Below, one piece after another: positions 417-7,989 of a stretch of DNA of 64,000 nt. Positions within the stretch are counted from its first letter, which is position 1. Each line of letters begins with the position of its first letter. Origin of the DNA: Cirrosporium novae-zelandiae (Eukaryota); assembly GCA_026023565.1 (NCBI GenBank), contig JAPETS010000018.1:124001-188000 (forward strand), given 5' to 3'. The translations under genes were made by a program, and so were the position numbers. A model generated the notes under the pieces. It was not told where the DNA came from. It ran no database searches and saw only the letters and a program-made list of their open reading frames with translations.

Positions 417-3317
417 CTACCTAACAAAAATCCTACAAACCGCCTGTTTCTCCGCCTCGACAAACCCCCCACTCCCATCCCCAATAGCAACAGCCAAAGA
501 AGCAGGCGGATCCCGTAACTGATCGAATCCAGTAACGGTTGCGGAGGGGAGGAGGGAACAGAAGAATGTCGGACCGTTTGCGGCGGCCGTCATTAGGGTT
601 GTTCTTTCGTTGGAGTTTTTGGTGGCGGTGGTGGTGGTTTTGATCAAGGTGGCTAGAGTGCTTGGAATTGTGCTAGATGTGGATGTAGAAATGGATGTAG
701 AAGTGGGCGTGGATGCGGGAAGGATCTCTTCTCTATAGGAAGCGGAAAAGAAAGAGGAAGAGGAAGAATAATCTAAAAGGCCTAAAAAAGGCACACACGA
801 ATGATTAATATCAATTCAATCACATAAACCACCCTACCCCATCTCATCCTCTAATTAATTTTTTCAATACCCTATAAACAAACAATACAAAAAAAGGGAT
901 ATGTGGCCCTTACATAATCCACAAAACCCCAAACCAAAAAAAAACTCCCCTTCTCAACCCCAGAAAGCAAGCAGCAAGCATAAGGAAAATCTTAACTACA
1001 TACCAATACCAACCCCATGAACAGATTCAGTAACAGCAGCAGCCACAGCCACAGCCCCCCAAAAAATCATCATGACCGTAGCCAAAACCCCCAACGTCCG
1101 TACTTTACCCCTCGAATTCGAACCCAACCCTGAGGAGGAAGTTGAGGATGATGGCGCCAGCAACTTTAAAAGCGTAGACTCCTCCGAACCGATAACCGAG
1201 AATTTATGAGACCGATCCGAGTTCAACATGCGTCGGACCCAAATTCTTTTGGTCGCTATCCCTTTAACTGTAGCCTGCTCTTCCTCAATGCCATAGTTGT
1301 CCCTCGCAAGCGCTGACACTCCATCCTCAACCATATCAAAATCAATATCCCACCCCCCCTCATCCGTTTCCCCATCCAAATTCACACGACCATAAACTTG
1401 GGCGATCAAGCGTGCGGCAAGACTGAGCCCAAAAAAGACAGTCGAGATTAAGAATATGAGAAAAGGAGTTGGGATGCGAGTTTCTCGTCCTAAGGTACCT
1501 TCGTGCAATGAGTGGACGAAGGATGTCTTAATTTCGGGAGCGGATGTGCATGATGGATTTTGCACAGGCGTTCCCAGAGTCATGAGTGGGAGGACTGGGG
1601 TTCTGGGCCGAATAAGTTCGTAGCATGCTGGGCAGGTTGAAGGATGTCCAATTGTCAGAAAGGCGGTAACTGCTTGCCATGGACTGATGGAGGAAGTTAT
1701 GGTCTGAGGGGTAGGTGTGTAAGGTATACTAGAGTCTATGGATGATAAAACGGGTGTAGTGGGAAAGACAAATCCAGAGCCTGCTGAACAGGTTGGCGGT
1801 GTTGCAGTTTCTTTCAAGGCGGCGCTTGGGGTAATGAGATAGCCTAGTAAAACTGTAAAGAGGGCTATGGAGGTATTTGATAGAAGTCGTTTTGAGCGGC
1901 CTAATTTCCTACCACTATTGCTGTTAGTATTGTCGTTATTGTCGCTATCGCTTCTATGACGATTTTCGGAATGATTAATCTCTTCACCTCCATTTTCCGC
2001 AGCATGGAGGCATATAGGTTGAACCATGGAGTCAAGTAGCATCTTAGTCTTGTTAACCCCTTGTGAAAATTTAGGAATATCTGCTTTGGGCAAGCCAACA
2101 CTGACGCGGTTTGGCTTAACAAAACGGAGAACCATAAAACCCATTACCAGCCTCAATACTGCCTGTGGAGAAAGAAAATAATAACTCGTGGATGTAATTC
2201 CTTCCATCTTCGTTGTTGCAGAGGCAGCAAAAGCCGGAGAGACAAAAAAGTTCGACATTATAAGTACTATCGTAAGTATTACTAGCGAAAATTGCAAACG
2301 CGATGCTGGTGGGTTAAACACAAGATTCCCAGGAGCTCCGCCGCGAAGTCGTAGAAACTGATATAGAGAAATAAATAATTCACTCGCTCCATTGTGCATG
2401 ACGATGCAGGATCCTGCGACACCTCCAGCTTCACCGAGAATAAATTCTTGTACGCCAGGTTCTCTAGGAGCTCCAAACATTGGTATTGATGATATTCCTG
2501 AACTCTGTTTTCCGACTGTAGCAGACAAAGCGGGGGGTATCCAACTTGTCATCGTTAGTAGGATTAGCATCCAAGCCCGAAGTGTTAGGAGGGTTGGTCG
2601 TAAGTTTCGCGCAGTTGCTACTGAGAGAGTCCAATTGTGTAGAATCATATATTCAAGCACGTATGACGATACTGCTAATAGCTCACTCGTTGAAATAGTT
2701 GACTGGCTAATTCCTACATGAACGACACCGGCTGAACTATTGGCTGTGCATATTGAATCCACGATACCAGAGGTATTAATATCATAGCCGCCATTAAGAA
2801 TCTCGACTAGATCTCGTTCGTCGCTATTTGCAGCTATTGCTTCCATAAAGCTTGGCCGTATAGCGTCTCTTATATCTAGTGAATCTGCAATGGTAGAGAT
2901 CGCTCCAAATTCCGGCAGAGCTGTAGCAGACACAACAAAACCAAGGACGATGATCCCTGCAGGAACCCATGTCCATAATCTAAAGCAAATTTGTAGTGGG
3001 GGGGTTGCAGCAGACTGAATAACAGAAGGGTCCTGAGGTGGCTCGAAATTTCCGGGCAAGGATCGATTGGCAATACCTGTTACAGGAATCGAATCTGCAA
3101 TGATTTCTGTTCCCTGGGTGGAATTAAAGAATGTTATTCTGAGGGTTATCAATGCCAGAAGAAAATAAAACGAGAGCCCAAGAGGCCGAGGGATAGGACC
3201 GTCACCAGTAAATGTAATTAGGCTATCTCGTGGCCTCATGGTTGAATATATTGCTACCGTTGTATTCACTGTAGAAGCGGCTACTATAGTCGGCATAACT
3301 GATAGCATAATAGCCAT
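417..3317 (-). CDS. Orphan secreted/membrane protein with ~8 repeated signal-peptide-like hydrophobic segments (putative polyprotein); 2 exons
   Basis: ORF 996..3440, first in-frame ATG at 3317 (MAIMLSVMPTIVAAS). Donor GTATGT at 1003 and acceptor TAG at 782 (alternative 773) join it in frame (phase 1) to the S/T-rich ORF 417..794. No known family recognised. Confidence 0.7.
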
Positions 3318-4580
3318 AATGATAAGTTTCCGCTGAAGATGAATGAAGAACAATGGGGTTCGGAAAGGCTTCTTATCGAGGTGAAATTCTGTAGTGGCAC
3401 AATAGGTAGCGACATATGAACATTCATAGAGAAGGTGCAATAATGGGTATTGAGGAAATCAATAATAGAAAATGCAATTATGAAGTAGATGATGTTTTGC
3501 TTGAATATCTTCGCAGGAATTCAAATACGAGACCAAATCTAGTAGGTAGTTATAAAAGACTTGCTCAGCAAGTAGAGAGTAAGACAGATAAAACGGGTAA
3601 GTGTGAGAACAAAACAAGAGAAACAGCATCAATTTATGAAATTGCTGACTGGAAGTGAAATGATAGTCATGCCATTAGGAGTGACAATTCTTTGATATAG
3701 CCACTGTCGGGCGATGAAGACGAGAAAATTAATTCCCTTAATTTGCGTACTGTACAAATGAAACTTCACCTAGCTACGACCAAGAGTTTTGAGTGGATGG
3801 CAAGTTGAACGGCGAGTTGGGCGGCGAATTTATAAGGTTAAGTGAATAGAACACCATATCTTCCACAAACCCATTGATCTTTTAAGTAAGTCTTTTAAGA
3901 TTATCTCTATCAATTATGTGAATGACGAATTCAAGAGTGCACATAGCCCTAGATGTTCCTGAGGACGTGTCATTAGCAAAGTGCGTTTCAAGTATTTGGT
4001 GACTGACTGTCTCAGGGCTCTTTCAAAGGAACGAGGAAAGATGTATATGATTCTTTGCTCATAGTCTCTCATCAATCCCTAGTACCCACCTTATCGACAA
4101 GGTGCCATGCATTTTCCCAAACTTGGGTTGTTGTAACAACCTAATCTGCAGGTACATGTAGACTCCCAGAGGCGTTTCGGGAGAACTGATCCTTGACCAA
4201 TGATCTCGTATCTAATTAGTTGATAGATGGGTCCATCACCCATGTAGCTACAGCATTCCGAAAATCGAAAATCAAAAATCGTCCAAGAATTCAGGTAATT
4301 AGCTGTCCGAACTTGCTAATCACTATCATGTAGAAGTTTATATATCACTTATGCTATCTCAAGAGTGGTGGCAGACTTGACGATGCACCTTCAATCTCAC
4401 GCCGTGGTAAATGAACGCCCCTATGTTAGCTTCCATATGCTTACAAAGATTCAGTAATGCTGCCATCTCAAACACCTCAAACAAAACGCCTTTCCCAACC
4501 AGGCATCGTTAGCCCGAACTCGTACAAGTAGAAATGCATCAATTAACTCCAATCAACTGTTATCAAAGTTGGCTTGGTCA

Positions 4581-6128
4581 TTAACGCTCTCGTCTCCCTT
4601 TTCTGCCTCCGCTAGAGGCACTTCCTGGACTACTAGCAACACCGGCACCGGCACCTCCACCCCCGTATACATGTCTCACCCCATCCATTTTCCCACTCCT
4701 TCCATCTCCATTGATCCTAACATGTAATCCTTTTGTTCCTCTTCTATGTCTCTTGCTCCCGTAATCCTCGTAACCATCAGGTGGCAATGGTGCTGGAGGA
4801 GGTGGAGATGGCCCCAGATGTGTAAATGCGAAAGGTTGTGGAGGAATAGTGCCATATGGTGTAGGGTTGCCATAACTATAATCATACATTGAATGATGGG
4901 AATGCCGACGGGGCGTTGGAGAATCATCCGTCAAAGGTGGAGACGGGGCTTCCGGGGGGTAGGAATTGTTTGGAGGTGAATAGGGTGGGGTTGGTGCTGG
5001 AGCACGTGTTGCCTTGCGAGATCGAGACTTGGCTTTGGGACTGGGAGACGTGTCGGACAGAGTCGAGTTGGAAGAGGAAGAGGGGGGACGCGAATGTGAG
5101 CGAGATCGATCCCGACTGCTGCTTGTATGGTAGGTGTGGGAATGATGAACGCGAGGACGCGACCTATTAGACGAAACATGTCGGAAAAATCCTGATAGTT
5201 GGTCTGGGAGACTACTCCGGCGTGGATGATGAGGTTTTGAACGGTACCGTGGTTGGGACGACGGTGTATGCTTAGACTCCGCGCCTCGCTCAGCATCCGA
5301 TGGCGACCAGCTTGTGTGCTTGCTTCTTGGAGGATGTGCAGAGATCGGCCTCCGATGGCTGGGCTGAGGAAAGTGCCGAAAGAATGGTGGTTGATTGTAC
5401 GGAGATGGAGACGCGGGGTCAACAGAAATAGAAGGACGAGGAGAGTTATTCGGACCGAACCATTCAGGTGGACTTGCAGGAGAAAATGCCCTTGTCGGGG
5501 AGAATGAGCTCTCAGCTTCATTTTCCAACCGATCCAACATTTGGTCATGCCATTTAGTCATGACCTCATCCGGTTGAGTAGGAAAGACCTCCGTGGGAAT
5601 TGATTTAGGGAACCTTTGCCCAGTCATTGGATTTGTGATATCATATTGTTTCACCGCCTCTTGCATCAACGGAATATGCTCCTCTGGGCATAGTAGCAGT
5701 TGGATGGTCTGCCATCGTGCGAATCCCGAAGGGAGTAGAGAGGGGATTGAAGGTGGAGCACGAGGATCAGAGGTAGGTTGCAACGAATGAAAGCATCCAA
5801 GAGATTGGTATATGAAGGAGAGAGAGGAATGTGGGGTTTTGAGGAAGAGAGCATCATAGTTTCCACCGACGGTATGATAGAAGTTAGCTAGCTTCTCTGG
5901 GGAGAGTCCATGGACCGAGCGTGGTTCCAAAGTGCGATTCTAGAAGAACATTAGTGAGATCTGACATTATTACGACGAGCGTTCCACGGGAATAAAAGAG
6001 TGACATACGAGCGCTCTGGCTAGTCCAAGAAGTAGCTGTTCAAATTTGGGAGATGCGCTTTTGTCTGGTTGTATAACATATTCCCAGAAATCAGGCGAAT
6101 CTGGGGAATCCCGAGCGTCACTATGCAT
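4581..6128 (-). CDS. Conserved fungal protein, N-terminal DUF7514-like domain plus Pro/Ser/Arg-rich disordered tail
   Basis: Exon 1 6128-6009 (MHSD...FWEYVIQPDKSASPKFEQLLLGLA), intron 6008-5940 (GTATGT..TAG), exon 2 in frame with ORF 4581..5930 (LSPEKLANFY..GCFHSLQP..GFARWQTIQLLLCPEEH). Confidence 0.75.
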
Positions 6129-7039: not shown

Positions 7040-7989
7040 TTATTCCTTTTTCGCATACAGTGGAACATCATTATTCGTAATTTTTTTCACAAACTCTAGA
7101 TCTGGATCATTGAGCAGCACATGGAAATGGTCCGGTCCCTTGACCGATTGAATCTCTCCCCAGTTCCTGAACCAAGCAACATCTCCACGTTTTGATATTG
7201 GTTCATTGTTAGTAGGTTGTGCCAGGTTTCGTCCACATCCCCACGACTTGGGCATTTTGGCCACATCTCTCAAAATTGGAGTATCCTTCTTTGGCGCTGT
7301 TGAGGGGAACGTCTTCGCTACGAATCTATCGATTACCCTCTTGACTTGTGGAGAAAGATCATCTGGAATAAGGGTGTCGGGATTGATCGTTAACTTGAAT
7401 TTAGTCCATACCGTGAGGTGAACAATCTTTTCGGCGAGACCATATGGCCAATCATTGATAATAATTTTGTAGTCACCTTGAAGAATAAGTAATTGTCTGT
7501 GGTACTTGGTAGAACATTCCACAATGCTAGAAGGGGAAGCGTACTGGGTTCGGCAAACGCAACTTTTCCTTTGGGTTTCAAGTCATTCTCCCAGTGTAAA
7601 CGTTCTTTGATCATATAATTCTCTACTGATCCGTATTTTTTCATCACATCATACTTGAACTTGAGGTACCGCCTAAGATCCGAAGGGACCCGATGGAACA
7701 TATCATATCGTTTCGTATCTAAACAATAGCAACACCAATGAGCTTCTTGTTCATGTTGATCAATGGGGCACCAAAAAATCTACTTGCACATACAAATCAT
7801 TAATTTGGTTTCAGCCCAATCATTATGTCGGTAATCCTTGTCCTCCTTACTCAGGATAGCAATATCTCGGTCGCTCAAGTTTCGTAAATATTCAGGACAC
7901 TCTTCAACCGACTCCCCTTTAGGCACATTAACTTCCCAGTATGGTGCCAACTTGGCTGGGACAGGCAGGTTGTCGGTGACAGTAGCCAT
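7040..7989 (-). CDS. GIG1: N-acetylglucosamine-induced protein 1-like (DUF3605)
   Basis: Three exons from ORFs 7780..8001, 7390..7701 and 7040..7522; motifs YWEVNVP, RVPSDLRRY, INDWPYG, WFRNW, HFHVL. Confidence 0.8.

Follow-up and report, generated by a model that had tools for sequence, protein, structure and literature searches.

Whether a fungal reading frame encodes one membrane protein or a precursor of several small surface proteins is the question raised by a gene at 417..3440 (-) in a 64,000-nt stretch of the Cirrosporium novae-zelandiae genome (GenBank assembly GCA_026023565.1, contig JAPETS010000018.1, positions 124,001 to 188,000), which is called the window below. An earlier note, made from the letters alone, had described about eight tandem cassettes of one polarity in this frame, each resembling a signal peptide or a glycosylphosphatidylinositol (GPI) signal, and had proposed that signal peptidase and/or GPI transamidase cut the product into small secreted or GPI-anchored peptides. 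For the most part the multi-cassette architecture is real, and it is unusual. Recast with alternating segments, the interpretation is plausible, and we tentatively favour a viral-style polyprotein made of four units of signal, ectodomain, anchor and cytosolic loop plus a Ser/Thr-rich tail, which would be cut by signal peptidase. The open reading frame (ORF), its segments and their statistics against controls are the observations from which we infer topology, cleavage, glycosylation and function.

Nine hydrophobic segments in one reading frame

An automatic hydropathy scan of the 892-aa protein found nine hydrophobic segments. Eight of them (c1 to c8) were the cassettes of the earlier note, all at the positions it had quoted; a ninth, c5b (aa 386-400), had been missed, and the "RKLII" of the first cassette lies upstream of the first ATG. 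The core-to-core spacing was 44-134 aa. In a rule screen of this contig, which covered about 2% of the genome, only one of 202 ORFs of at least 200 aa, the target itself, had at least five segments all at least 40 aa apart. Segments combining a basic lead with an [AVS]xA end numbered six in the target and at most two in any other of the 202 ORFs.

No convincing DNA repeats were found in the gene, the best of the 36 spacer pairs reached z=2.9 (p=0.013, uncorrected), and an alignment of the cassettes contained no invariant column. The spacers, described earlier as mutually dissimilar, are not repeats.

Gene model and coding evidence

The minus-strand frame is open from stop to stop over 820 codons (996..3458). 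The first in-frame ATG, at 3317, stands in a good context (A at -3, G at +4), and exon 1 counted from it covers 1004..3317 (-). The intron predicted earlier (782..1003, -; 222 nt) has GTATGT...TAG ends and only weak branch-like words. Splicing the window sequence at 1003..782 reproduced exactly the database protein model P0002 (892 aa), labelled as a hypothetical protein of C. novae-zelandiae (Xylobotryomycetes), in agreement with that prediction. Predicted exon 2 (417..781, -) is Ser/Thr-rich, and its C-terminus is without a hydrophobic GPI tail. Residues are numbered here as in P0002; the numbers of the earlier note are higher by 41.

The minus-strand ORF is a real gene and not a chance one. 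Exon 1 has 773 open codons, as against a longest ORF of 253 aa in 500 base shuffles of the exon, and its in-frame all-codon score lay within the coding range and above those of all five other frames; a chance ORF or a wrong frame was ruled out by these two results. Sequence searches of its own genome (a 31.4 Mb assembly) showed, within their sensitivity, a single copy of the gene. A search for paralogues there gave one match at E=0.2, at a locus without a related ORF on reading, and no search with a cassette profile was made.

A young, weakly constrained or silent ORF, with a functionless pattern or with pieces degraded by quality control in the endoplasmic reticulum (ER), is quite improbable. 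Its codon scores were at the low end, with 9% and 13% of a set of 85 long ORFs scoring lower, several out-of-frame ATGs lie upstream, and homologues were absent from all libraries searched (see below), as such an ORF would lead one to expect. Against it stand the length of the open frame relative to the shuffles, the all-codon score, the start context and the lack of a repeat-induced point mutation (RIP) signature, which was looked for in the gene; its GC content and RIP indices match those of the window. The missing relatives may be accounted for by the isolated lineage to which the genus belongs (PMC6712537; this and the other papers are cited for the parts of their text that were available).

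Upstream of the ATG, 47 in-frame codons are open (3318..3458, -), the last of which would give signal c1 a basic n-region if translated. They may point to a non-AUG start, an upstream exon or a formerly longer ORF. A pyrimidine run resembling an acceptor and ending in CAG lies among them at about 3332; an upstream exon was rejected for want of a convincing donor. Out-of-frame ATGs occur at 3427 and 3415, and the short frame that they open (3427-3284, -) overlaps the main start codon and could be a regulatory upstream ORF if it lies within the transcript.

Signal peptide features of the segments

The negative set consisted of the hydrophobic segments of 16 ORFs on this contig, 14 with a Pfam membrane-family match and 2 retained after inspection. 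These ORFs remained from 21 candidates once the target, three antisense-looking ORFs and one soluble protein had been removed. There were 86 control segments initially (used in the test with p=0.13 below) and 81 after removal of five lying no more than 25 residues from the ORF start. Positive controls were hand-picked from genes of six secreted or GPI families in this genome and comprised 21 signals at the N-terminus and 19 GPI tails; they are predictions filtered for hydrophobicity rather than validated signals. Scoring used a von Heijne count matrix, all columns of which sum to 161, and hydropathy scales.

An [AVS]xA end after an uncharged core was found in 6 of the 9 segments, 16 of the 21 signals and 16 of the 81 control helices. 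Combined with a basic lead, it occurred in 6/9 segments versus 9/81 helices (p=0.0005). Proline at P4-P6 together with small residues at -3 and -1 was present in 4/9 segments versus 4/81 helices (p=0.003), and in 5 of the 21 signals; proline at these positions is a published signal-peptide feature (PMC13385932). The [AVS]xA and proline rules were picked after the sequence had been seen, and both are textbook features (PMC13385932, PMC11579918). The uncharged stretch ahead of the putative cuts measured 17-24 aa, compared with 16-28 aa in the hand-picked signals. The median von Heijne score was 4.2 for the segments, 7.1 for the hand-picked signals and 3.4 for the control helices. By discrete features the segments are clearly enriched in signal traits, and by matrix score they are intermediate between helices and signals.

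The polarity ascribed to the cassettes held in part. The nearest upstream charge was basic in 8 of 9 segments versus 39 of 81 control helices (p=0.02), but net flank charge favoured a cytosolic N-side in 7/9 only, and this count fits alternating and same-polarity models equally (7/9 each).

Predicted topology and processing

Ser/Thr-rich regions are a mark of O-mannosylated luminal parts in fungi. With c5b counted, the nine segments permit strict alternation across the membrane, starting from a cleaved N-terminal signal. The Ser/Thr contents of the nine spacers A to I, in order, were 30, 16, 21, 12, 38, 14, 29, 18 and 31%, and every predicted luminal spacer exceeded every predicted cytosolic one, an arrangement given by 1 of 126 possible splits (p=0.008). 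Threonine alone gave the same value (p=0.008), Ser/Thr/Pro gave 0.016 and serine alone 0.095, and the Ser/Thr alternation held after trimming of 3 or 6 residues. The five segments predicted to run from cytosol to lumen (c1, c3, c5, c6 and c8) all had a positive upstream net charge. All five ended in [AVS]xA, as did 9 of the 39 control helices that have a basic lead (p=0.002; the internal four alone, p=0.006); among the four predicted anchors only c7 had such an end. The spacers with an even number of cysteines and thus a potential for disulphides, G and I, are both on the predicted luminal side.

Two claims of the earlier note are modified by these results. Only every other spacer is rich in Ser and Thr, the rest having 12-18% Ser/Thr. 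The placing of every spacer in the lumen is weakened by the ninth segment, by the strict alternation and by topology, since one segment cannot normally leave both of its flanks in the lumen.

In the alternating arrangement the chain would be laid out as follows, all coordinates being on the minus strand. The N-terminal signal peptide c1 (aa 1-14, 3276..3317) ends in VAA with Pro at P6 (von Heijne score 4.2) and is followed by spacer A (aa 15-43, 3189..3275; predicted lumen). Segment c2 (aa 44-69, 3111..3188; score 4.2), without an AxA end, is a predicted anchor or GPI-type signal and leads to spacer B (aa 70-112, 2982..3110; predicted cytosol), which has one N-glycosylation sequon. The predicted internal signal c3 (aa 113-133, 2919..2981; score 5.1) ends in ATA|LP ahead of spacer C (aa 134-239, 2601..2918; predicted lumen) with 3 sequons. 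Segment c4 (aa 240-265, 2523..2600) is ambiguous: it would be an anchor or GPI-type signal, yet is strongly signal-like (PPALS, score 7.8). Spacer D (aa 266-339, 2301..2522; predicted cytosol) then separates it from the predicted internal signal c5 (aa 340-364, 2226..2300), which ends in PAFA (score 8.4).

Spacer E (aa 365-385, 2163..2225; predicted lumen) precedes the predicted anchor c5b (2118..2162), which is of marginal hydrophobicity and has basic residues on its C-side. Spacer F (aa 401-475, 1893..2117; predicted cytosol) is about 28% charged and has two sequons. It is followed by the predicted internal signal c6 (aa 476-500, 1818..1892; score 3.3), with 5 basic residues upstream and a PSAA end. 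The Ser/Thr/Pro-rich spacer G (aa 501-613, 1479..1817; predicted lumen) contains 4 Cys. Segment c7 (aa 614-634, 1416..1478) is again ambiguous, an anchor in the alternating model yet signal-like (SLA, score 8.0). Spacer H (aa 635-737, 1107..1415; predicted cytosol) is about 28% charged, with KR and RR pairs at 690 and 695. The predicted internal signal c8 (aa 738-761, 1035..1106; score 2.8) ends in AVAVAAA, and the Ser/Thr-rich region I (aa 762-892), with 2 Cys, completes the protein. A tenth, weakly hydrophobic signal-like stretch was seen in exon 2 (520-750, -), with a predicted cut before aa 857 (score 5.3); it comes after a Ser/Thr-rich stalk and may be what is left of an additional, decayed unit.

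The favoured reading is a lineage-specific ER precursor arranged like a viral envelope polyprotein and inserted co-translationally. Signal c1 would open the translocon and be cut. Each luminal Ser/Thr-rich ectodomain would then be followed by a stop-transfer anchor (c2, c4, c5b or c7), a cytosolic loop and an internal signal (c3, c5, c6 or c8), which would reopen translocation and be cut by the signal peptidase complex (SPC) at its [AVS]xA end. The predicted products are four small membrane glycoproteins, whose ectodomains would measure about 29, 106, 21 and 113 aa and which would each retain an anchor, a loop and the stump of the next signal, and a fifth, soluble Ser/Thr-rich C-terminal protein of about 131 aa. 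Translated from one mRNA in equal amounts, they would probably form a co-expressed, O-glycosylated set for the surface or wall.

Internal cutting by signal peptidase, as the earlier note had proposed, has statistical support from the c-region features and mechanistic precedents (PMC11579918, PMC2288913); the cleavage itself is a prediction. An engineered membrane segment followed by a cleavage cassette is cut by the yeast SPC when its core consists of 14 Leu, whereas cores of 17-20 Leu and long n-regions are disfavoured (PMC11579918). Internal cutting is therefore feasible, not assured.

Besides this substrate preference, several results weigh against the cut, alternating polyprotein. By von Heijne score the nine segments were below the signals (p=0.01) and not clearly higher than the helices (p=0.08 for nine, p=0.13 for eight); c6 and c8 scored under 3.5, and the predicted anchors c4 and c7 held two of the three best signal scores. 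When the post-core residues were shuffled locally, at least 6 AxA ends arose in 3% of cases, which indicates that much of the AxA effect is carried by the small-residue composition of the c-regions. The Ser/Thr alternation depends on c5b, a poor helix (approximate dG 4.3, controls' 90th percentile 3.6), six composition measures were tried after the sequence had been seen, and the charge measures of the spacers did not alternate (p=0.21 and 0.28). In c2 and c4 basic charge is greater on the upstream side, contrary to an anchor orientation. The sequons, to which the earlier note had drawn attention, are no evidence: 9 were present where chance would give 6.1 (p=0.14), so that an enrichment was rejected, and they occur in predicted luminal and predicted cytosolic spacers alike.

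The first rival is an uncut polytopic glycoprotein with a cleaved N-terminal signal, eight helices and large loops on both sides, in which the AxA ends would be incidental; such an orphan could act as a sensor or scaffold in the membrane or wall. Although doubtful taken singly, this explanation is nearly as likely as the cut polyprotein. It has the same alternating topology and is supported equally by the Ser/Thr alternation. Ordinary helices often look similar (40/81 scored at least 3.5, and 16/81 had [AVS]xA ends), and signal anchors with cleavage motifs often stay uncut (PMC11579918). The nearest look-alikes by language model were clusters of ascomycete hypothetical proteins (0.77-0.90), some with DUF3433, DUF6536 or DUF3176, to be taken as leads only. 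An uncut protein accords less well with the [AVS]xA ends of all four internal segments predicted to be N-cytosolic, the enrichment of Pro-containing c-regions, a spacing of segments never closer than 44 aa, unlike that of the transporter controls, and the lack of a membrane-family match in Pfam and NCBIfam.

GPI likeness and possible Kex2 sites

The earlier note had also pointed to omega-like small residues ahead of several cassettes. An omega-like triplet was found before 5 of the 8 internal segments, compared with 23 of 81 control helices and 18 of 19 GPI tails. The upstream small-residue fraction was 0.50 in the segments, 0.41 in the helices (p=0.015) and 0.91 in the GPI tails (p=7e-5). The triplets were confirmed in part, but at or near chance and in a context poorer in small residues than that of GPI tails. 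An omega site together with a small-residue stalk occurred in 2/8 internal segments, 17/19 GPI tails and 1/81 helices, and neither the spliced model nor the unspliced frame had a C-terminal hydrophobic GPI tail. The GPI likeness of the segments is weak.

An exchange of some anchors of the alternating polyprotein for GPI is possible, because they are oriented as a GPI signal requires and the triplet precedes three of the four even segments (p=0.08). In an engineered chimera an internal GPI signal was functional, also when a signal peptide supplied the hydrophobic portion (PMC2288913).

The chimera also lends some support to the form in which the idea was first put, with each cassette acting as GPI signal and signal peptide at once, all spacers luminal, transamidase cutting before and signal peptidase after each cassette, and 8-9 small GPI-anchored or secreted peptides as products. 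The basic upstream charge in 8/9 segments fits it, as do c4 and c7, which score as high as true signals. Yet it is unlikely, as it requires segments with a luminal flank on either side, which is not a standard topology; a precedent, the pestivirus Erns-E1 junction, is inefficiently cut (PMC7601889). It also leaves the Ser/Thr alternation and the C-side basic residues of c5b unexplained, and neither the scarcity of omega sites with a stalk nor the C-terminus without a GPI tail agrees with it.

The protein has only four dibasic pairs (at 470, 476, 690 and 695), each lying inside a predicted cytosolic loop or at its border. A tandem-repeat precursor of the KEP type was rejected, as there are no convincing repeats and the pairs are not at unit boundaries.

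Homologue searches and gene neighbourhood

Exon 1 had no match in Pfam or among 1.84 billion representative proteins, and NCBIfam gave none. In a set of 5.8 billion proteins, searched at near length and among shorter proteins, not longer ones, the near-length search (top 8000 candidates scored) returned only the gene's own database model, and no homologue among shorter proteins was found for aa 100-420 (3360 candidates) or aa 470-892 (8000 scored). Metagenome contigs gave no match, nor did viral contigs in a scan that detects close relatives only. The best hit among PDB sequences had E=0.58 and was not counted as a match. Single-sequence AlphaFold models were unusable (pLDDT 35.0 and 36.7). 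In the language-model atlas TM stayed under 0.4, on models of low confidence. A match to a normal polytopic membrane family, which the earlier note had named as evidence against its proposal, was looked for in Pfam, NCBIfam, PDB and the atlas, and none was found. The orphan status may reflect sparse sampling of an isolated lineage.

Upstream of the gene lie ordinary fungal genes, encoding a DUF7514 protein (4581-5939, -; E=9e-51) and a DUF3605 protein (7040-7582, -; E=1e-26). A tRNA-like gene, called by ARAGORN with its anticodon not assigned, is located about 550 bp past the stop of the gene (L002 9782-9866, +). Near it is a 138-codon open frame (L002 8875-9288, +) without an NCBIfam match, and a second tRNA-like, intron-bearing sequence was seen by eye near L002 7945-8055, which ARAGORN did not call. 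Family matches at the same coordinates on contigs C35 and C47, and likewise identical ones on C32 and C94, suggest redundant contigs in the assembly.

Capture of a viral envelope polyprotein gene, an origin compatible with the cut polyprotein, is very improbable. The architecture resembles viral polyproteins of signals and anchors (PMC7601889), and the tRNA-like gene beyond the stop would suit such an event. The viral contigs and the representative proteins gave no match in searches of limited sensitivity, GC content and RIP indices are those of the window, the ectodomains are small and Cys-poor, and the neighbours are ordinary fungal genes.

Significance and comparison with known systems

If cut as predicted, this would be a cellular fungal gene with the processing logic of a viral envelope polyprotein, by which a number of surface or secreted proteins arise together. 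Proteins with many predicted membrane helices are discarded from catalogues of secretomes and effectors, which would systematically miss such precursors and their products. The gene would also provide a natural substrate for studying how signal peptidase distinguishes internal signals from anchors. If uncut, it would be an orphan membrane glycoprotein. With more reserve than for the single gene, we consider that it may be one instance, with 5 to 9 products, of a hidden class of sequence-unrelated fungal nuclear polyproteins. In these, a single ORF would join whole small surface-protein units of signal, mini-ectodomain and membrane or GPI anchor, and the units would be released in the ER not by Kex2 but by signal peptidase, possibly along with GPI transamidase. 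Such a class, if real, would be a eukaryotic substitute for the operon, misread by secretome pipelines as multi-pass membrane proteins.

Among the matches listed by a literature search, mostly outside subscription journals, none described, as judged by titles and the beginnings of abstracts, a precursor that occurs naturally in fungi and has several internal signals at which it is cut. KEPs (PMC9769878), candidalysin and killer-toxin precursors are, like the present protein as predicted, fungal secretory precursors with several products per ORF. They differ in that the present gene has no repeats, its dibasic pairs bound no units, and its boundaries are hydrophobic segments. The SPC can cut after membrane segments that are not terminal, as in cellular quality-control substrates and iRhom2 (PMC13385932) and in the yeast LepCC model substrates (PMC11579918). 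There, either a single cut serves degradation or signalling or the substrate is engineered; surface proteins are not produced in series. In the engineered DAF-hGH chimeras (Caras 1991, PMC2288913), GPI anchoring of the preceding part can be directed by a hydrophobic segment within the chain, which may even be a signal peptide; the chimeras are artificial, with one junction, in mammalian cells, and the omega context of the fungal gene is much weaker than that of its own genome's GPI tails.

The structural polyproteins of Flaviviridae (C-prM-E-NS1; C-E1-E2-p7-NS2 in hepatitis C virus; Erns-E1-E2-p7 in pestiviruses) are cut by ER signal peptidase (PMC7601889). Unlike them, the present case is a nuclear fungal gene with a predicted intron, without sequence likeness, with tiny Ser/Thr-rich ectodomains and with cleavage that is predicted only. 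Viral anchors and signals form tight hairpins, whereas in the fungal protein they are set apart by predicted cytosolic loops of 43-103 aa. If the fungal protein is cut, it would resemble these viral precursors (PMC7601889) in that a single ORF contains several internal sites for signal peptidase, anchors alternate with signals, and more than one membrane glycoprotein is produced.

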